A stretch of 64,000 nucleotides of DNA from Gaiellaceae bacterium (GTDB lineage Bacteria; Actinomycetota; Thermoleophilia; Gaiellales; Gaiellaceae): positions 1,462 through 65,461 of the forward strand of contig DASWRL010000047.1 of NCBI GenBank assembly GCA_036403195.1, written 5' to 3'. This document shows positions 30,105 to 58,621 of the stretch, one piece after another. The notes under the pieces are model-generated. The model had not been told where the DNA came from and did not search any database. It was given only the letters and a program-made list of their open reading frames with translations. Within the stretch, counting starts at the first letter, position 1, and the number at the start of each line of letters is the position of its first letter. The translations under genes were made by a program, and so were the position numbers.

Positions 30105-30677
30105 ATGACCGAGATCGTGCTGTACCACCACGTCCAGGGCCTGACCGACGGCGTGCGGTCGTTCGCCGACGACCTGCGGCGGGCCGGGCACACCGTCCAC
30201 ACGCCCGACCTCTTCGACGGGCGCACCTTCGACACGATCGACGCCGGTATGGCGTACGCGCGCGACGCGGGGTTCGAGACGCTCGCCGAGCGGGGCGTCG
30301 CCGCCGCCGAGCCGCTCGGCCCGGCGGTCGTCTATGCCGGCTTCTCGATGGGCGTGATCATCGCGCAGAGGCTCGCGCAGACGCGGCCCGGCGCGCGCGG
30401 CGCACTGCTCATGTACTCGTGCCTCCCGGTGTCGGAGTTCGGGCAGACGTGGCCGGAGGGCGTGCCCGTGCAGATCCACGGCAAGGCCGACGACGAGTTC
30501 TTCCTCGAGGACGTCGACGCCGCACGTGCGCTCGTCGACTCGACCGACCGGGCGGAGCTCTACCTCTACCCCGGCTCGGAGCACCTCTTCGCGGACTCCT
30601 CACTGCCGGCGTACGACGCGGCGGCCGCCGCATTGCTCACCGAGCGCGTGCTGGCGTTCCTCGACTCGCCGCAATGA
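30105..30677 (+). CDS. Dienelactone hydrolase-family alpha/beta hydrolase
   Basis: VLYHHVQGLTDGVRSFADDLRRAGHTVHTPDLFDG and GFSMGV nucleophile-elbow-like motif. Confidence 0.8.
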   Translation: MTEIVLYHHVQGLTDGVRSFADDLRRAGHTVHTPDLFDGRTFDTIDAGMAYARDAGFETLAERGVAAAEPLGPAVVYAGFSMGVIIAQRLAQTRPGARGALLMYSCLPVSEFGQTWPEGVPVQIHGKADDEFFLEDVDAARALVDSTDRAELYLYPGSEHLFADSSLPAYDAAAAALLTERVLAFLDSPQ

Positions 30678-51422: not shown

Positions 51423-52583
51423 ATGGACGAGCCGGGTGTCTTCGACCGCCTCCGCCGGCTCGAGATCGAGACGCCGTCGTGGGGCTACGGGAACTCGGGC
51501 ACCCGCTTCCACGTCTACCCCTGGCCCGGTGCCGCGAGGACGGTCCACGAGCGGCTCGACGACGCCGCCCTCGTCCACCGCCTCACGGGTGCCTGCCCGA
51601 GCGTCGCGCTGCACATCCCGTGGGACGCCGTCGACGACTACGGCGCACTTCGCCGGTACGCGGAGGATCAGGGCCTTCGCATCGGCGCCGTCAACCCGAA
51701 CCTCTTCGGCGACGACGCGTACGCGCTCGGGAGCCTCTGTCACCCCGACGCGGGGGTGAGAGCGCGTGCGCTCGAACACTGCCGCGAGTGCATCGGGATC
51801 GCAGAGGAGGTCGGCTCGTCGATCGTCAGCCTGTGGCTCGCGGACGGGACGAACTACCCGGGCCAGGACGACCTGCGCGAGCGGCACGCGCGCCTGGTGG
51901 CGACGCTGGACGAGCTCTACGCGGCGCTCCCCGACGGAATGCGCCTCCTCGTCGAGTACAAGTTCTTCGAGCCGGCGTTCTACAGCACCGACCTCCCCGA
52001 CTGGGGGACCGCCGCCCTCCTCTGCCGTCGCCTCGGCCCGCAGGCGCAGGTGCTCGTCGACACGGGTCACCATCCCCAGGGAACGAACGTCGAGCAGATC
52101 GTCGCGCTGCTCCTCGCCGAGGGGCTGCTCGGAGGCTTCCACTTCAACAACCGCAAGTACGCGGACGACGACCTGATCGTGGGCTCGATCGACCCGTTCG
52201 AGCTGTTCCGGATCATGCGCGAGATCGCGCGGACGGAGTCGCCCGAGCGCATCGCGTTCATGATCGACCAGTCGCACAACGTGGAGGGGAAGATCGACGC
52301 GATGATCCAGTCGGTCTCGAACATCCAGACGGCGTATGCGAAAGCACTGCTCGTCGACGACGAGCGCCTCGATGCGGCCCAGCGTGCGGGCGACGTGCTC
52401 GGCGCGCACCGCGTGCTGATGGACGCGTACGAGACGGACGTGCGTCCGCTGCTCGCCCGCCTGCGTGAGGACCTCGGCGTGGAGGCCGACCCGGTCGAGG
52501 CGTTCCGGCGCGGCGGTCATGCCGCACGCCTTGCACGGGAGCGCGGGACGACGTCGGTGGCGAGCGCCTACGAGAGCGATTGA
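51423..52583 (+). CDS. rhaI: L-rhamnose isomerase (xylose-isomerase-like TIM barrel, actinobacterial/P. stutzeri type)
   Basis: ETPSWGYGNSGTRFHVY, LVEYKFFEPAFYSTD and VDTGHH. An alternative GTG start is at 51405. Confidence 0.92.
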   Translation: MDEPGVFDRLRRLEIETPSWGYGNSGTRFHVYPWPGAARTVHERLDDAALVHRLTGACPSVALHIPWDAVDDYGALRRYAEDQGLRIGAVNPNLFGDDAYALGSLCHPDAGVRARALEHCRECIGIAEEVGSSIVSLWLADGTNYPGQDDLRERHARLVATLDELYAALPDGMRLLVEYKFFEPAFYSTDLPDWGTAALLCRRLGPQAQVLVDTGHHPQGTNVEQIVALLLAEGLLGGFHFNNRKYADDDLIVGSIDPFELFRIMREIARTESPERIAFMIDQSHNVEGKIDAMIQSVSNIQTAYAKALLVDDERLDAAQRAGDVLGAHRVLMDAYETDVRPLLARLREDLGVEADPVEAFRRGGHAARLARERGTTSVASAYESD

Positions 52584-52594
52584 GAGGAGGCCCG

Positions 52595-52906
52595 GTGACC
52601 GAACGGAGCGCGTTCGTGCTGCGCGTGAGGCCCGAGATGGTCGACGAGTACGTCGAGGCGCATCGAAACGTCTGGCCCGAGATGCTCGACGCGCTGCGGA
52701 ACGCAGGCATCCGCAACTACTCGATCTTCCGGCACGGCAACGAGGTGTTCGGCTACTTCGAGTCGGACGACGCCGAGGCCGCCGCGAGGTACATGGAGGC
52801 GCAGGAGGTGAATGCCCGCTGGCAGGACACGATGGCGGGGCTGCTGGAGGAACGCGTTCCGGACGCGGGGCCGGCCGCGCTGGAGGAGATCTTCAGGCTC
52901 GAATAA
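52595..52906 (+). CDS. rhaM: L-rhamnose mutarotase
   Basis: SAFVLRVRPEMVDEYVEAHRNVWPEMLDALRNAGIRNYSIFRHGNEVFGYFE. GTG follows GAGAGGAGG. Confidence 0.88.
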   Translation: MTERSAFVLRVRPEMVDEYVEAHRNVWPEMLDALRNAGIRNYSIFRHGNEVFGYFESDDAEAAARYMEAQEVNARWQDTMAGLLEERVPDAGPAALEEIFRLE

Positions 52907-52965
52907 CGGCGCGGCGAAAAGGCGGCAGCGGAGGAGGGCCTCGCGCCGTCGAGAACAGGCTCTTC

Positions 52966-53499
52966 GTGGGATCGATCGACTCCGGCGCCGTCCCACCGCA
53001 CGGCCTGGAGCAGCGCAGGCACGAGTTGCACGGCGCGTTCGGCAGTGACGCGTTCGGGCGCCTGGCAGAGAAGGCCGCGCGGTTCTTCGGCACGCCGCAG
53101 TACATCGTCGGCCAGACGGTCGCGGTCATCACCTGGGTCGTCGTGAACTCGACGCAACTCCACTTCGGCTTCGCGTGGGACGTCTATCCGTTCATCGCAT
53201 TGAATCTGCTCTTCTCGCTCCAGGCCGCGTACGCGGCGCCGCTGATCCTGCTCGCGCAAACCCGGCAGGCAGACCGCGACAAGCTCCACACCGACCGGAT
53301 CGACGAGGGACACACCCGGCTCGCAGAAGCCGCGAAGGCCGAGACGGACAAGCTCCTCGAGCTGCTGCAGACGAACACGGAGCTCACGCGGCAGGACAAG
53401 GAGCTGACGGAGTCGGTGGCCGACCTGACGAGGCAGATCCACGCGCTCCTCGCCGGACGCCAAAACCCGGCGAGCGACACTCCGACTGAACTCGAGTAA
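52966..53499 (+). CDS. DUF1003-family membrane protein
   Basis: FGRLAEKAARFFGTPQYIVGQTVAVITWVVVN...YPFIALNLLFSLQAAYAAPLILLAQTRQADRD plus a coiled-coil tail. The start is uncertain (GTG at 52966; no in-frame ATG). Confidence 0.75.
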   Translation: MGSIDSGAVPPHGLEQRRHELHGAFGSDAFGRLAEKAARFFGTPQYIVGQTVAVITWVVVNSTQLHFGFAWDVYPFIALNLLFSLQAAYAAPLILLAQTRQADRDKLHTDRIDEGHTRLAEAAKAETDKLLELLQTNTELTRQDKELTESVADLTRQIHALLAGRQNPASDTPTELE

Positions 53500-53577
53500 T
53501 CGGGGCGGGCAACGCGCAATTGCGCGCATTCAGCTACGTTCCTCACACCGACAACATCGCAACGAGGTGATCCCGAC

Positions 53578-54000
53578 GTGCCAAGACCCCGCTCGAAGAC
53601 CGCGACTCGCAAGTCCTCGACACGCAAGACCGCGACACGCAAGACCGCGACACGCAAGAGCTCCGCGAAGAGATCGACGACGTCGACGCGGCGTCCTGCA
53701 GCAGCAAGCTCGAGTGCCGGCGCGACATTCGCCTGCCCCGAGTGCGGCAAGACATTCGCTCGCCCCGCAGCGCTCGGCGCGCATCGCAGTCGCGCTCATG
53801 GCGTCGCCGGTGCGTCGTCGCGGAGATCGACGACTGCAGCACGCGCGACCCGCGCAACGCGCGCACCGCGTGACGGCTCCGTCGACCGCGACGCCCTCCT
53901 CGCCGCACTGTTCCCGAACGGGATCCCGGCGCGCGAGCGCGTCATCCGTGACGTGAACGCCTGGCTGGACCAGGCCGAACGGCTCGCGCGGCAGGGCTGA
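53578..54000 (+). CDS. Basic protein with K-[TS]-[AS]-T-R pentapeptide repeats and a single classical C2H2 zinc finger
   Basis: GTG start after GAGGTGA. PRPRSKTATRKSSTRKTATRKTATRKSSAKR... then FACPECGKTFARPAALGAHRSRAH (F-x-C-x2-C-x3-F-x5-L-x2-H-x4-H). Confidence 0.65.
   Translation: MPRPRSKTATRKSSTRKTATRKTATRKSSAKRSTTSTRRPAAASSSAGATFACPECGKTFARPAALGAHRSRAHGVAGASSRRSTTAARATRATRAPRDGSVDRDALLAALFPNGIPARERVIRDVNAWLDQAERLARQG
53596..53655 (+). repeat. 15-nt-period tandem repeat (aagaccgcgacacgc and variants, 4 units) encoding KTATR/KSSTR
   Basis: Direct inspection. Two units are identical and the flanking units are degenerate. Confidence 0.85.
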
Positions 54001-54041: not shown

Positions 54042-54611
54042 GTGCTCGCGGCGGCGTGCGCGTTCGCCGTCGTGCTCTGGGGCGGCTACGGCCGGGGCTG
54101 GCACTGGACGGGATTCGAGCCCGACGCCAAGCTCTGGGACTGGCTCCACGTCTTCGTGCTGCCGCTCGCGTTCGTCGCAGGCCCGCTCTGGCTTCGGCAT
54201 CGCGCCCGGCTCGGCCGCAGGCATCGACTCGCCGCGGCCGCGCTCGTCGCGTGCTTCGGCGTGCTCGTCGCGGCGGGGTACGCGTTCGACCTTCGCTGGA
54301 CGGGTTTTCCGGGCAACGAGCTCTGGGACTGGCTCGAGCTCCTCCTCCTGCCGCTCGCGATCGCACTCATCCCCGTGTGGACCGACCTCACGGGCGGAGT
54401 GCGCCGCAGGCACGTCGCCGCCGCCGCGTTCGCGACGATGTTCCTCGCCGTCGCGATCGCCGGCGGCTACGGCTACCACTGGCATTGGACCGGCTTCCGC
54501 GGGAACACGCTCTTCGACTGGATCCAGCTCGTCATCGCACCGCTGCTGGTCCCATTCGTCCTCGTCCCGCTCACGGAACGGGCGATGACGCCGGACGAGG
54601 GAAAGAGATGA
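54042..54611 (+). CDS. Integral membrane protein built from three internal repeats (GYxxxWxWTGFxxNxLWDWLxLxxLPL)
   Basis: GTG start. Repeats at GGYGRGWHWTGFEPDAKLWDWLHVFVLPLA, AGYAFDLRWTGFPGNELWDWLELLLLPLA and GGYGYHWHWTGFRGNTLFDWIQLVIAPLL. Confidence 0.65.
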   Translation: MLAAACAFAVVLWGGYGRGWHWTGFEPDAKLWDWLHVFVLPLAFVAGPLWLRHRARLGRRHRLAAAALVACFGVLVAAGYAFDLRWTGFPGNELWDWLELLLLPLAIALIPVWTDLTGGVRRRHVAAAAFATMFLAVAIAGGYGYHWHWTGFRGNTLFDWIQLVIAPLLVPFVLVPLTERAMTPDEGKR

Positions 54612-54876: not shown

Positions 54877-55992
54877 TTGACTAGAGCCCTCTGCCTCGTC
54901 GCGCTGTCCGTCCTCGCCGCAGGCTGCGGCTCGGCGGCGCCGCACCGGCTTCGGGTCGGCGCGGTCGAAGACGTGGCGAAGGCGGGCGACGCGAAGGCTG
55001 CGATGCAGCTCGCGGCCCGGTCCGGCTTCGACGTCGTCGTGCTCAGCTCGACCTGGACGCGCGGCCTCGACGCCCCGGCCGCCGGCGAGCTCGAGTCGCT
55101 GCGGCGCGCCGCCGCCGCGGCGGTCGACGCCGGCGTCGCGCCGGTCGTCGCGATCTACTCGTTCAGCTCGAGCACGCCACTCGACGAGAGCGGCCGTGAG
55201 GAATTCGCGGCCTACGCGGCCGCGATCGTGCACGCGCTGCCGCAGCTGCACGCAGTGATCGTCGGCAACGAGCCGAACCTGAACCTCTTCTGGCTCCCGC
55301 AGTTCACCCCCGACGGCCAGGATGCAGCGGCGCGGGCGTTCGAGGCGCTGCTCGCGCAGACGTACGACGCGGTGAAGAAGGCGCGCTCGGACGTCGAGGT
55401 GATCGGCGCCGGCCTCGCCGCGCGCGGCTCCGACGATCCGCAGGCCGCACGGCAGACGCATTCGCCGACGCGCTTCCTCCTCGATCTCGGCGCGGCGTAC
55501 CGCGCATCGGGCCGGCGGCGGCCGATCATGGACGCGCTCTCCCTCCATCCGTACGGCGAGACGCCGCGCGTGCCGCCGACGCTGAGGCACCCGCACTCGA
55601 CGTCGCTCGGGATCGCCGACTACGAGAAGGTGCGCGAGCTGCTCGGCCGGGCGTTCGGCGGCACCGCGCAGGACGGCCGCGACCTGCCGATCGTCTACGG
55701 CGAGTACGGCGTCGAGACGCGGATCCCGCCCGCCAAGGCGGCCCTCTACAGCGGCAGCGAGGTCGTCGAGGCCGTGCCGGAGCAGACGCAGGCGCGGTAC
55801 TACCGCTCCGCCCTCGAGCTCGCCGCCTGCCAGCCGACGGTCGAGCTTCTCCTGTTCTTCCACGTCCAGGACGAGCCGCGCCTCGAGGGGCTGCAGAGCG
55901 GGACGCGCTACGCGGACGGCTCGCCGAAGACGAGCATGGCGCCGGTTCGTGCCGCGATCCGCGCCTGCGCCCACTCGTGCTGCGGCGGGTGA
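54877..55992 (+). CDS. Lipoprotein, glycoside-hydrolase-like (clan GH-A TIM-barrel-like)
   Basis: TTG start. Lipobox LSVLAAGCGS. IVGNEPN motif and YGEYG later in the sequence. Confidence 0.65.
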   Translation: MTRALCLVALSVLAAGCGSAAPHRLRVGAVEDVAKAGDAKAAMQLAARSGFDVVVLSSTWTRGLDAPAAGELESLRRAAAAAVDAGVAPVVAIYSFSSSTPLDESGREEFAAYAAAIVHALPQLHAVIVGNEPNLNLFWLPQFTPDGQDAAARAFEALLAQTYDAVKKARSDVEVIGAGLAARGSDDPQAARQTHSPTRFLLDLGAAYRASGRRRPIMDALSLHPYGETPRVPPTLRHPHSTSLGIADYEKVRELLGRAFGGTAQDGRDLPIVYGEYGVETRIPPAKAALYSGSEVVEAVPEQTQARYYRSALELAACQPTVELLLFFHVQDEPRLEGLQSGTRYADGSPKTSMAPVRAAIRACAHSCCGG

Positions 55993-56069
55993 CCACGGTT
56001 TGCGTTCGGGCGCCGCACGGGAAGGAACTGACCGCCGCTCGACCCGACCCCCGTCCGCGAGCTCGACGA

Positions 56070-57557
56070 ATGGCGACACACCGAGCCTCACCCGACCCCT
56101 CGACCGTCGATACGCGCCTCTCGACCGGCGTCGCCGGGCTCGACACGATCCTCTGCGGCGGGTTCCTTCCCGGCCGCACCTACATGGTGCGGGGCGAGCC
56201 TGGGGTCGGGAAGACCGCGCTCGGGCTCCACTTCCTGGCCGACGGCGCGGCGCGCGACGAGCGGGTCCTCTTCCTGACACAGGGCGCAACGCAGGAGGCC
56301 GTCCGCCAGGACGCCGCGTCGATCGGCGTGCCGATGGACGGCGTCGACTTCCTCGACTTCACGCCCGACCCGAACGAGTTCGAGGTCGCCGACACCTACG
56401 ACGTCTTCGAGCCAGGCGACGCCGAACGGACGCGGTACGTGTCGACCGTCGTGGCCGCGGTGCGCGAGACCCGCCCGACGCGGGTGTTCCTCGACGCGCT
56501 GACGCAGGGGCGGCACCTCGCCGAGGACGTGGTCGAGTTCCGGCGGCAAGCGCACGCGCTGTTGCGGTTCTTCGTCGGCGAAGGCGCGACCGTCGTGTTC
56601 GCGTCGGGGAGCTCCGACCGCCGGGCCGACGAGGACCTGCAGTTCATGAGCGACGGCGTCCTCCACCTCGAGTACTCGCCCCAAGGCGGCAGGATCGTCT
56701 CCGTCACGAAGCTGCGCGGGTCCCCCTTCCGCCTCGGACGCCACTCGCTGCGCATCACCGACCACGGCCTCGAGGTGTACCCGCGACTCGTTCCCGAGGC
56801 GCACGCGCGGCCGTACCGCGACGAGCAGATCGGAACCGGGATCGAGCGCCTCGACGTGCTGCTCGGCGGCGGCATCGAGCGCGGGTCGATCAGCCTCGTG
56901 ACCGGCCCGAGCGGCGTCGGGAAGACGACGCTTGCGACGCAGTTCGCGAAGGAGGCCGCGCTGCGCGGCGAGCGATCGGTGATCTACACCTTCGAGGAGG
57001 CGACGGCGACGTTCGTGCATCGGTCGGAGGCGATCGGCATGCCGATCTCGAAGATGGTCGCGGCGGGGTCGCTCTCGATCGTCGAGGCGGAGCCGCTGGA
57101 GTACACCGCGGACCAGTTCGCGATCGCGGTCCGCGAGGAGGTGGAGCAGCGGGAGGCGAAGCTGGTCGTCCTCGACAGCCTGTCGGGGTACCGGCTGGCG
57201 ATCCGCGGCGAGAACCTCGTCGAGCACGTCCACGCGCTGTGCCGCTACCTGCGGAACATGGGCGCGACCGTGATCGTGCTCTACGAGGTCACGTCGGTCA
57301 CCGGCGACTTCCGCGCGACCGAGGTCGGGCTCTCCTACCTCGCCGACAACATCGTGTTCCTCCGCTACGTGGAGATCGACAGCGAGCTTCGCCGGGTCAT
57401 CGGAGTCCTCAAGAAGCGGTCGACGGATTTCGAGAAGAAGCTGCGGGAGCTGACGATCACGGCGCACGGCATCGAGGTGGGCGAGCCGCTCACCGGGCTG
57501 CGCGGGATCCTGCGCGGCGTGGCGGACCGGGTCGACGGCTCGTCCCGCGGCGACTGA
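56070..57557 (+). CDS. KaiC-family double RecA-like ATPase
   Basis: Two KaiC-type domains: STGVAGLDTILCGGFLPGRTYMVRGEPGVGKTALG and GTGIERLDVLLGGGIERGSISLVTGPSGVGKTTLA. The C-terminus reads IGVLKKRSTDFEKKLRELTI. Confidence 0.9.
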   Translation: MATHRASPDPSTVDTRLSTGVAGLDTILCGGFLPGRTYMVRGEPGVGKTALGLHFLADGAARDERVLFLTQGATQEAVRQDAASIGVPMDGVDFLDFTPDPNEFEVADTYDVFEPGDAERTRYVSTVVAAVRETRPTRVFLDALTQGRHLAEDVVEFRRQAHALLRFFVGEGATVVFASGSSDRRADEDLQFMSDGVLHLEYSPQGGRIVSVTKLRGSPFRLGRHSLRITDHGLEVYPRLVPEAHARPYRDEQIGTGIERLDVLLGGGIERGSISLVTGPSGVGKTTLATQFAKEAALRGERSVIYTFEEATATFVHRSEAIGMPISKMVAAGSLSIVEAEPLEYTADQFAIAVREEVEQREAKLVVLDSLSGYRLAIRGENLVEHVHALCRYLRNMGATVIVLYEVTSVTGDFRATEVGLSYLADNIVFLRYVEIDSELRRVIGVLKKRSTDFEKKLRELTITAHGIEVGEPLTGLRGILRGVADRVDGSSRGD

Positions 57558-57565
57558 GGGGGCCG

Positions 57566-58621
57566 ATGCCGCGCGTCCTCCTCCTCGTCCACCACCGGGG
57601 CAACCGGCGACTGCTCCAGACGTGGGTCGAGCAGTCGCTGCGCGCGGACGCGATCTCCGCGCCGGAGACACCCGACGACGACGTCGACCTCGTCGTCGCA
57701 GACGCTGCGGCGTTCGCGCGCGACCGTGACCGGATCGAGCGGCTGCGCAGCCGCTCGCGACCCGCGTTCCTCCCGTGCCTCCTGGTCGCGACGCCCCGCG
57801 AGGCCGAGCGGCTCACGCTCGAGAGCTGGCGTCAGGCGGACGACGTCGTCGTCACGCCGATCCGGCCGGAGGAGCTGCGGATCCGGCTCGAGCGGCTGAT
57901 GTCGCAGCGCGCCGACAGCCTCGCGACCGAGGCCGAGCGCACCGAGCTGCGGCGCTCGAACGTCGACCTCGAGCGGTTCGCGTTCGTCGCCGCGCACGAG
58001 CTCGTCGCGCCGCTCACCGTCGTCCGCGGCGCCGTGCAGACGGTCGGCGCACGCTTCACGGGCGGCGACGAGCCGGCGAAGGCCGTCCTCGAGACCGCCG
58101 TCGAGGGCTGCGAGCGGATGCAGGTCCTGATCGAGAACATCCTCGATCTCTCCCGCGCCGGTCGCGGCGGCTCGCGGCAGGAGGTCGCGACGACGGCGCT
58201 CGTCGACGACGTGTGCGCGGAGCTCCGCGACCGCGCCGCCGCGAGCGGCACCGTCGTCACCTACGCCGACCTTCCGGTGGTGACGGCCGACCCGGCGCAG
58301 CTCCGGCTCGTCTTCCGGAACCTCATCGCGAACGCCGTCAAGTTCGCACGGCCCGGCGTGCCCGCCCGGGTCGAGATCACCGCCGCGCGCAGCGGCGCGC
58401 ACTGGCAGTTCTGCGTGGCCGACAACGGGATCGGGATCGAGGACGACGACCGCCAGAAGGTCTTCGACCTCTTCAACCGCGCGGGCCGGTCGAACCACGT
58501 CCCGGGCACGGGGATCGGCCTCGCGATCTGCCAGCGCATCGTGGAGCGCGCCGGCGGCCGGATCTGGATCGAGCCCGGTGACGAGCAGGGAACGGTCTTC
58601 TGCTTCACGGTCCCCGCGTAG
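57566..58621 (+). CDS. Histidine kinase with an N-terminal pseudo-receiver domain
   Basis: ATG lies 8 nt after the KaiC stop. The receiver-like fold lacks the DD pocket (LLLVHHRGN) and the conserved Lys (VVTPIRP). H-box FAFVAAHELVAPL. N/G boxes NLIANAVKF, DNGIGI and GTGIGLAICQ. Confidence 0.88.
   Translation: MPRVLLLVHHRGNRRLLQTWVEQSLRADAISAPETPDDDVDLVVADAAAFARDRDRIERLRSRSRPAFLPCLLVATPREAERLTLESWRQADDVVVTPIRPEELRIRLERLMSQRADSLATEAERTELRRSNVDLERFAFVAAHELVAPLTVVRGAVQTVGARFTGGDEPAKAVLETAVEGCERMQVLIENILDLSRAGRGGSRQEVATTALVDDVCAELRDRAAASGTVVTYADLPVVTADPAQLRLVFRNLIANAVKFARPGVPARVEITAARSGAHWQFCVADNGIGIEDDDRQKVFDLFNRAGRSNHVPGTGIGLAICQRIVERAGGRIWIEPGDEQGTVFCFTVPA

Follow-up and report, generated by a model that had tools for sequence, protein, structure and literature searches.

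A classical-type C2H2 zinc finger joined to basic tails and a conserved C-terminal module in Gaiellales bacteria

The classical C2H2 zinc finger is the most abundant DNA-binding domain in animals. It has been described as practically absent from bacteria (PMC3541406), and where a prokaryotic origin is discussed, attention has gone mainly to the Ros/MucR domain, which differs in structure (PMC9779718). Here, we describe a protein of 140 amino acids with a single finger, encoded in a window of 64,000 nucleotides (the whole stretch of DNA that was analysed) on contig DASWRL010000047.1 of a Gaiellaceae bacterium. The coordinates of its parts are collected in Table 1. The protein and its relatives are built from four parts: a disordered basic N-terminal tail, a classical finger, a disordered Arg-rich linker and a helix-loop-helix module at the C terminus. 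This architecture is conserved, though neither the length nor the sequence of the tails is fixed.

The TFIIIA/Krüppel-type fingers (CTCF, Tramtrack, 1MEY, Aart) share with the family the C-x2-C-x12-H-x3-5-H class, the F/L core and the predicted fold. In contrast to them, the family has one finger and no tandem array, lacks the TGEKP linker, spaces its histidines as H-x4-H where H-x3-H is dominant, and carries Ala, Ala/Ser and Ala at the base-reading positions +2, +3 and +6; moreover, the host is bacterial and the module is unmatched elsewhere. A single classical finger within basic regions, as in the family, is found in GAGA factor, SUPERMAN and the plant Q-type proteins. SUPERMAN is said, after the work of Dathan et al. 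2002, to be a precedent for DNA binding by one finger. As a working model of how the family would bind DNA, a single finger with basic flanks, in the mode of GAGA factor and SUPERMAN, is the most likely by analogy. The GAGA finger is described as needing its basic flanks (PMC3541406). Compared with all three systems, the basic flanks of the family are long, of low complexity and variable. The recognition helix of the plant proteins contains an invariant QALGGH, reported to be plant-specific (PMC6164605). The family helix, (A/P)A(S/A)LGAH, shares L-G-x-H with it, but the Gln is missing (Ala or Pro-Ala stands instead) and the family consensus does not contain the plant motif; the EAR motif is also lacking, and no specific homology emerged beyond the generic C2H2 profile.

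In a prokaryotic or viral setting, AFV1p06 of an archaeal virus is comparable: it is small, has one finger and is extended at both termini. Its eukaryotic fold was shown experimentally, the fourth His ligand is missing, and the authors found no bacterial homologues (PMC3541406). The extensions of AFV1p06 are unrelated to those of the present family, which is cellular and bacterial and has relatives in tailed phages.

The finger and its gene

The finger matches the classical C2H2 consensus position for position, as the original prediction had stated: it fits F-x-C-x2-C-x3-F-x5-L-x2-H-x4-H, and the Pfam profile zf-C2H2 (PF00096) is covered in full (positions 1-23 of 23, E = 2.5e-5, 24.9 bits against a cut-off of 25.2 bits). 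From the sequence, the predicted zinc ligands are C53, C56, H69 and H74 with the spacing C-x2-C-x12-H-x4-H. No other C2H2 pattern is present in the six frames of the window, and the strict pattern turned up by chance in 0.5% of 200 shuffled windows. The profile zf-C2H2_4 also matches, as does zf-C2H2_6 below its threshold (E = 6e-5, 23.3 bits versus 25 bits). Most homologues have a precomputed PF00096 match, and relatives with two and five fingers score 42.6 and 77.1 bits, clearly above the cut-off. The Cys/His quartet, which the original prediction expected to be conserved in homologues, is kept with its spacing in 120 of the 121 proteins examined; the sole exception (P0118) has Trp in place of a Cys. 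The strict pattern (F/Y)-x-C-x2-4-C-x3-F-x5-L-x2-H-x3-5-H applies to 118 of the 121, and several hundred relatives retain F60 and L66 of the hydrophobic core. The family consensus, F-x-CPECG(K/R)xFxR(A/P)A(S/A)LGAHRx(R/Q)AHG(V/I)xG, is nearly invariant. Helix positions -1, +2, +3 and +6 are occupied by R62, A64, A65 and A68 in the window protein and, in the family, by an invariant Arg, Ala, Ala/Ser and Ala.

In the AlphaFold2 (AF2) model the finger consists of two strands (51-52 and 59-60) and a helix (63-73) at a predicted local distance difference test score (pLDDT) above 90, with the Cys ligands predicted on the beta-hairpin and the His ligands on the helix. Foldseek superposed it on fingers of CTCF, Tramtrack, ZNF and SALL proteins with a root-mean-square deviation (rmsd) of 0.6-0.8 Å over 22-26 residues at 42-45% identity; with so short a domain, the E-values do not reach significance. 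A search of the Protein Data Bank (PDB) with the family profile gave as best matches the designed consensus fingers Aart (2i13) and 1MEY (CPECGKSFS...L..H), and these sequence alignments cover only profile columns 18-52, which are the finger. Pattern and model agree that the finger is of the classical eukaryote type, and they predict that it binds zinc.

In the bacterial Ros/MucR proteins, too, a DNA-binding finger with basic residues on its flanks is paired with a helical part of its own, which serves oligomerisation, so that the family might belong there or at least be a functional analogue. The Ros/MucR domain is defined by C-x2-C-x9-H-x3-4-H and forms a globular fold of 58 residues, beta-beta-beta-alpha-alpha, whose hydrophobic core comprises 15 residues (PMC9779718). 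In the window protein the spacer between Cys and His is 12 residues and not 9, and the model has only beta-beta-alpha (residues 51-74) followed by the disordered linker. The ROS_MUCR profile found no match, neither in Pfam at E <= 1 nor in NCBIfam, and there was no Ros structure among the top 50 Foldseek or the top 60 HMMER matches to the PDB. The domain order is reversed as well: Ros/MucR proteins are alpha-proteobacterial and have an N-terminal oligomerisation domain, whereas the N terminus here is a disordered basic tract and the hosts are actinobacteria of the Gaiellales/Thermoleophilia. With profile, spacer, predicted fold and PDB searches all contrary, membership in Ros/MucR is refuted, its probability being negligible; the view of the original prediction that the finger is classical and unlike those of Ros/MucR was borne out.

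In sequence the finger comes very near to the animal consensus (CPECGK-F-R---L--H), and its best PDB sequence matches are designed consensus fingers; both would fit a recent transfer of a fragment of a eukaryotic zinc-finger gene. CPxCG is reported to be a generic prokaryotic zinc-knuckle motif (PMC11241148), and because the motif is common in prokaryotes, the nearness to animal fingers speaks only weakly for transfer from a eukaryote. Against a transfer speak the spacing H-x4-H in 83 of 88 representatives, while multi-finger matches have mainly H-x3-H (867 versus 130), the absence of TGEKP linkers and tandem fingers, a GC content of about 70% that is typical of the host, the deep divergence within one bacterial order (more than one synonymous substitution per site, dS) and the existence of phage relatives. 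We regard such a transfer as very improbable.

The open reading frame (ORF) translates letter for letter as the original prediction had written it, into a protein with 31 Lys and Arg and 8 Asp and Glu residues. A chance pattern in an untranslated frame of a high-GC genome would be conceivable in view of the GTG start, a GC content at third codon positions (GC3) of 0.77 that lies under that of the adjacent genes, the long antisense ORFs that overlap the gene and the lack of the exact protein in a collection of 15 billion proteins. The antisense ORFs, however, are the usual artefacts of high-GC DNA, and a spurious ORF would hardly have the relatives that were found. A search of 5.8 billion proteins retrieved 514 homologues at E <= 1e-3, with a top identity of 64%, and hundreds of homologues keep the zinc ligands. 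A HMMER search of 1.84 billion representatives, which used the family profile as query and no word index, gave 82 matches at E <= 1e-30. Among its top 150 matches were 94 single-finger, full-length family members (88 new and 6 already known), which means at least 94 family clusters at 50% identity; the rest were long eukaryote-type multi-finger proteins aligned on the finger columns only.

In the ungapped finger and C-terminal blocks, the ratio of nonsynonymous to synonymous substitution (dN/dS) against 12 homologous loci was 0.06-0.20, a value to be read with the caveat that the blocks had been picked with a protein motif. Synonymous sites were saturated (dS 0.9-2.1), and the two shifted frames of the same DNA gave pN/pS values of 2-3. 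Homologous loci have GGAGG or GAGGTG at the same distance from the start as in the window, and the closest locus (L001) opens with MPRPRSKS at the equivalent site behind GAGGTG. Homologues with conserved ligands, the frame-specific dN/dS, the conserved Shine-Dalgarno sequence and start, and the confident AF2 domains refute a spurious ORF, which is left with practically no probability. The gene is real and under purifying selection, and the GTG-started frame is translated, as had been supposed. In 21 of 22 loci found by a pattern scan of 185,579 species genomes, GC3 of the finger gene is below that of the flanking genes (mean difference about -0.10; Wilcoxon p = 1.4e-6; in the window 0.80, for 53728-54000, versus 0.89), although this gap is overstated because the neighbours were chosen with a GC3 filter. 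Altogether, practically no room is left for Ros/MucR membership, a recent transfer from eukaryotes or a spurious ORF.

Table 1 Features of the zinc-finger gene and its upstream region; coordinates refer to the window.
Feature	Coordinates	Strand	Basis
Perfect 14-bp palindrome CGCGCAATTGCGCG, in the 78-nt gap between the DUF1003 stop and the start of the finger gene	53513..53526	.	
-10-like TACGTT (TAnnnT type), about 40 nt 5' of the start	53535..53540	+	by eye; inference only
Shine-Dalgarno-like GAGGTG	53564..53569	+	8 nt 5' of the GTG start
Coding sequence of the 140-amino-acid single-finger C2H2 protein	53578..54000	+	GTG start; ORF translation
MPRxR motif, then basic disordered tract rich in Thr/Ser/Ala/Lys/Arg, residues 1-50	53578..53727	+	AF2 pLDDT, composition
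15-nt tandem repeat, unit AAGACCGCGACACGC, 4.3 copies	53596..53659	+	Tandem Repeats Finder score 107, 89% matches
Classical beta-beta-alpha C2H2 finger FACPECGKTFARPAALGAHRSRAH, residues 51-74	53728..53799	+	PF00096, AF2, Foldseek
Conserved GV(A)G cap and variable Arg/Ala/Ser/Gly/Thr-rich linker, residues 75-101	53800..53880	+	AF2, family composition
C-terminal module, residues 102-139	53881..53994	+	family conservation, AF2

Basic tails and the C-terminal module

The most distinctive feature of the family, the invariant helix-loop-helix module at the C terminus, is missing from the original prediction. The 38-residue module has the consensus (V/I)(D/N)RDALLxALFPNGIPARExVIRxxNxWLDxAERLA, and its model shows a short helix (104-111), an FPxGxP loop and an amphipathic helix of 21 residues (119-139), at a pLDDT of 80-95 in the full AF2 model and 88.8 when modelled alone. 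Invariant are R104, F112, P113, G115, P117, E120, L130, D131, E134 and L136, and the charged residues R104, D105, E120, R124, D131 and E134 are all invariant or nearly so. In the long helix, I123, V126, L130, A133 and A137 occupy a/d heptad positions and, together with V122, W129 and L136 at g, form a broad hydrophobic stripe. The module found no match in Pfam, in the PDB sequences or, by Foldseek, in the PDB structures; its best Foldseek match, to the Bcr oligomerisation domain at E = 7.7, carries no weight as evidence.

When the module was searched for by itself, its profile brought up 171 proteins of 33-81 amino acids without Pfam domains, which raised the possibility of an independent domain or mini-protein. 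This was rejected, as in the two cases examined on long contigs a complete finger protein lies upstream in the same frame (L023:3680-4120 and L024:3785-4207); the short calls begin at an internal GTG of VDRD. The apparent stand-alone matches of 39 amino acids are thus truncated gene calls, and the module never occurs without a finger. Because many members (as in P0121-P0240) are called as hypothetical proteins of 33-81 amino acids, the family is under-counted and mis-annotated in JGI, ENA and NCBI. Conversely, longer "fusions" are ORFs that were extended too far, so that the true M(A/P)RxR start lies within them (P0272, P0276, P0294, P0327). Genuine variants are P0025, with two fingers and the module, and P0302, with five similar fingers and a different tail.

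The two tails flanking the finger are predicted to be disordered, with a pLDDT below 50 at residues 17-40 of the N-terminal tract and at residues 80-95 of the linker. The Arg/Thr/Ala-rich linker that had been noted after the finger is present; across the family it is 24-117 amino acids long and contains 20% Arg. The N terminus of family members reads M-[PA]-R-x-R, followed by a basic tract of 0-109 amino acids (median 24) composed of 19% Ala, 15% Arg, 15% Thr, 14% Ser and 9% Lys.

In the window protein the tract contains a repeat that encodes KTATR-KSSTR-KTATR-KTATR-KS.., with the unit K-[TS]-[AS]-T-R. The original prediction counted it as part of the protein's architecture. The repeat is indeed there, as confirmed with Tandem Repeats Finder, but it is no trait of the type: four K[TS][AS][TS]R units occur only in the window protein, while 114 of 120 homologues have none and six have one. 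Other members carry unrelated repeats in the same place, namely GKATST in four copies (L008, 5995-6504), the ten-residue SKPSPRTRxA in five copies (P0321), KKTTS in three copies (P0011) and KTES-like units (L013). These repeats arose independently, and the tract is a slippage hotspot; it is therefore to be seen as a repeat-prone, compositionally constrained basic tail, whose conserved trait is the A/R/T/S/K composition together with predicted disorder. The last two full units of the KTATR array have identical DNA, which is why the array is considered a recent slippage expansion that adds tail length and positive charge and has no separate functional role. It turns out to be a lineage-specific peculiarity at the level of strains.

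The comparison with histone tails, also made in the original prediction, holds for composition, which resembles basic low-complexity tails of the H1/Hc2 type, and for nothing beyond: the Pfam profile HC2 (PF07382) gave E = 0.06 and 13.9 bits against a cut-off of 40 bits, a likeness of composition only. Bacterial chromatin proteins with disordered tails rich in Lys, Arg, Ala, Thr and Ser, whose repeat number varies between strains, include Hc2 of Chlamydia, HupB/MDP1 of mycobacteria, HupS of Streptomyces and AlgP of Pseudomonas. Their tails and the N-terminal tract of the finger protein are alike in being basic, repeat-prone and disordered, without being homologous. The repeated units are not the same (KTATR versus PAKKA, KAAK and KPAA), and the tract is joined to a zinc finger and not to an HU- or H1-like fold.

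Hosts, phage relatives and gene surroundings

Nearly all of the 22 loci are labelled Gaiellaceae, Gaiellales, Thermoleophilia or unclassified Actinomycetota, and one Solirubrobacterales. Every named family member came from a metagenome-assembled genome (MAG); the search for a cultured host brought up no isolate. The family is thus almost confined to MAGs of the Gaiellales/Thermoleophilia. For the window itself, the protein encoded at 30105-30674 has an identical counterpart in NCBI, HEY0416274.1, which comes from a MAG labelled "Gaiellaceae bacterium". Two loci lie on MAG contigs labelled "beta proteobacterium" (L015) and "Fimbriimonadaceae" (L020), which may reflect mis-binning or a genuine transfer outside the Actinomycetota. 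One MAG, MFD04967.bin.2.158, has two copies of the gene (L011, L017). They are near-identical, including about 120 nt of similar upstream sequence, and each lies on a contig of its own among other genes; they stem either from a recent duplication or from heterogeneity of strains within the bin.

Four related contigs from IMG/VR (L027-L030, 66% GC) encode proteins of 137-142 amino acids with a finger, a linker and a divergent module (...MLYPQGVIPTKHVLSLLRWREATERML). Their relationship to the family is supported by hhalign (probability 98%, E = 3e-13 over 100 columns), at an identity of 26-28% to the cellular members, and the basic N-terminal tract is absent. On L027 (166-6767) the gene lies in a string of SNF2 helicase, three unknowns, phrog_4480, the finger gene, a MerR-like helix-turn-helix protein, a protein resembling single-stranded DNA-binding protein (SSB) and family-A DNA polymerase. 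This replication or early module is conserved in L027-L030 and L033, phage-like contigs of 63-66% GC, and L033 has a two-finger protein at the same position. A neighbour of 94 amino acids in the same module has a Lys/Ala/Thr/Pro-rich basic N-terminal tail of its own (MPTATKKAPTKA...). An attempt to extend the phage branch brought up a single cluster in the 5.8 billion proteins, and PHROGs contains no significant family for the protein. In the structure collection BFVD, small "C2H2-type domain-containing proteins" of tailed phages superpose on the finger. Among cultured-phage genomes only a finger-only match was obtained, in the jumbo Tunturiibacter phage Tunturi_5, whose finger is very similar and whose tail differs from the module and is common to P0302.

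A second bacterial and viral C2H2 family came to light in these searches. Its finger, CPECGKxF...LGAHRxxxHG, is near-identical and its conserved tail, AFGRYTELC...EFDLPPVSFARQLA, is another one; one finger is present in the viral contig L025 (4977-5429) and five in P0302.

These relatives could mean that the family is a phage-derived or mobile regulator, domesticated or still mobile, with the cellular copies being remnants of actinophages or defences and the function lying in early-gene regulation, replication control or exclusion instead of the organisation of host chromatin. Divergent full-length homologues in a conserved replication module, the two-finger version, the similar but differently tailed fingers of viral contigs and of a jumbo phage, the wholly unconserved neighbourhoods, the low GC3 at 21 of 22 loci and the neighbours of one locus (L023: an AAA_13 ATPase, NERD and RHS genes) would fit this picture. 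However, the gene is surrounded in the window by genes of ordinary metabolism and signalling, integrase, transposase and phage structural genes are absent from its vicinity, and 72,556 plasmids contain no family match. The phage branch is tiny, distant in sequence and devoid of the basic tract, whereas the cellular family is diverse with saturated synonymous sites, which points to its having been in the lineage for a long time. That the protein is a regulator of phage or mobile origin is therefore held to be rather improbable.

Upstream of the gene in the window lies a DUF1003 membrane protein (52966-53499), preceded by a rhamnose cluster (FGGY kinase, DeoR, RhaA-like isomerase, RhaM), and downstream an unannotated membrane protein (54042-54611). 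The longest ORF of the DUF1003 gene (52465-53499) overlaps rhaM (52580-52906) in another frame, and the profile of GC by codon position places the true start near 52966 (GTG). Further downstream, at 55977-58621, a double-domain KaiC-like ATPase of 526 amino acids is directly followed by a HisKA/HATPase_c histidine kinase, a signalling pair that here occurs in a non-cyanobacterial genome. By tblastn of ten window neighbours and all-against-all clustering of the ORFs at the loci, no gene was found to be common to the 22 loci, and there is therefore no guilt by association.

The -10-like hexamer of the window sits just downstream of the palindrome, and a TAnnnT hexamer is found 35-50 nt 5' of the start in nearly every homologous locus. 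Its own TAnnnT and Shine-Dalgarno sequences are consistent with an independent transcription of the gene. The leader at 53530-53577 and that of the closest locus (L001:5953-6000) have the blocks GCTACGTT, CGACAACATC and GAGGTGA in common at a protein identity of only 58%, a hint that the leader or promoter has been conserved within the sub-branch. A scan for E. coli-type sigma-70 promoters and terminators yielded nothing. The palindrome, which may belong to the finger gene, could be an operator or form an RNA hairpin; no equivalent was seen upstream of 20 other loci. In 18 upstream regions the hexamer CGACAA/TTGTCG was enriched (7 of 18 versus 1.1 expected), at inconsistent positions and without significance after correction for about 2,000 six-mers.

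A possible function and its meaning

That the protein binds nucleic acids, as was originally proposed, is the most reasonable inference. In the mechanism that we favour, the finger and its basic flanks would hold nucleic acid, most likely double-stranded DNA, with low specificity, and the C-terminal hairpin would serve oligomerisation or partner binding; we give this about an even chance. The invariant Arg at helix position -1 (R62) would be the one potential base contact, and K58, H69, R70 and R72 could contact phosphates. The two disordered basic flanks would provide electrostatic affinity or a clamp, in the way of GAGA factor and SUPERMAN. With one base contact, phosphate contacts and basic flanks, low sequence specificity would therefore be expected. 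Precedents exist for both halves of the mechanism. AFV1p06, as a single-finger viral protein, binds double-stranded DNA weakly, at micromolar affinity, with a preference for GC, and proteins with few fingers contact DNA through their extensions (PMC3541406). MucR has an oligomerisation domain beside its zinc finger and acts in the manner of H-NS (PMC9779718). In the present family, the stripe of V122, I123, V126, W129, L130, A133, L136 and A137 together with the invariant charges may mediate self-association or docking to a conserved partner. The outcome would be a multivalent DNA binder that acts as a nucleoid-associated protein or global regulator, comparable in function, and without homology, to MucR, Lsr2 and HU with basic tails. 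A DNA-related role is supported because the full-length phage homologue sits in a module with SNF2, SSB and DNA polymerase A. As to the nucleoid-associated class, it is only charge, predicted disorder and the amphipathic helix that would point to it.

Several points weigh against this mechanism. Its zinc binding, DNA binding and oligomerisation are predictions, and the small residues at +2, +3 and +6 would fit binding of RNA or protein equally well. The window protein scores 0.3 bit under the curated gathering cut-off of PF00096 (25.2 bits), and the module lacks a structural analogue that would show oligomerisation. The low GC3 at 21 of 22 loci is atypical of very highly expressed genes such as those of classical nucleoid proteins in high-GC actinobacteria. 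The upstream regions of homologous loci revealed no conserved operator or target motif, and the 22 loci share no conserved synteny that would hint at a pathway.

The finger and tails could instead bind rRNA or mRNA, as in the small C2H2 proteins of archaeal ribosomes or the zinc-finger proteins of kinetoplastid RNA editing. Foldseek retrieved a "nucleic acid-binding protein" of 47 amino acids with a C2H2 finger from the 70S ribosome of T. kodakarensis (6skg_Bo; rmsd 0.5 Å over 26 residues; E = 0.006 in the PDB search with the family profile), and a ribosome-associated "C2H2-type domain-containing protein" (9qf4_Bk) and KREPA2/MP42 were retrieved as well; NCBIfam gave weak matches to a "putative Zn-ribbon RNA-binding protein" (E = 0.003). 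Ribosomal proteins typically have long basic tails, and the small residues of the recognition helix speak against base-specific reading of DNA. All these matches, however, are weak and restricted to the finger, and none of the 22 loci lies in a ribosomal or translation gene cluster. The two copies in one MAG, the phage relatives in a DNA replication module and the restriction of the family to one actinobacterial lineage, where ribosome components are usually broadly conserved, also argue against binding to RNA, which we consider unlikely.

The layout of a zinc module, a basic linker and a C-terminal two-helix module, at a similar size, resembles that of RbpA. It raises the question whether the protein could be a transcription adaptor whose C-terminal hairpin docks to RNA polymerase or a sigma factor, with promoter DNA being touched by the finger and the basic linker. 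Apart from this resemblance in domain order and size to the actinobacterial protein, the invariant charged surface of the module suggests a conserved partner and not only a hydrophobic self-interface. On the other hand, homology to RbpA is undetectable (hhalign probability 0.1, E = 0.5, against the one RbpA sequence used), no Pfam RbpA match was obtained and the gene does not co-localise with rpo or sig genes. An RbpA-like sigma-interaction domain was accordingly rejected as an identity of the module, and the adaptor idea, being purely architectural, is also thought unlikely, to the same degree as binding to RNA.

The original prediction had spoken of a type not seen described, and this stands insofar as we found no paper on C2H2 fingers together with Gaiellales or on this family; the literature on classical C2H2 fingers in bacteria and phages yielded only Ros/MucR, archaeal-virus and unrelated papers. 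It does not stand for the databases, where members go by the names "C2H2-type zinc finger protein" in NCBI and "uncharacterized C2H2 Zn-finger protein" in JGI, and C2H2 proteins are also annotated in tailed phages. New are the family architecture, the unmatched module at its C terminus, the confinement to Gaiellales/Thermoleophilia and the existence of relatives in phages, whereas the fold is known.

It is tempting to go further and to see in the family a lineage-specific chromatin protein or global regulator of the Gaiellales, built on a true classical finger that bacteria would have kept and exchanged with phages independently of Ros/MucR, but this is tentative and rather doubtful. If true, the "eukaryote-specific" classical finger would have an old reservoir in bacteria and phages, and the family would be a tractable minimal model of a single finger coupled to a hitherto unseen module for oligomerisation or partner binding. 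With the family, one can ask of a concrete system how a lone finger between disordered basic flanks operates in a bacterial cell and where the fold originated.

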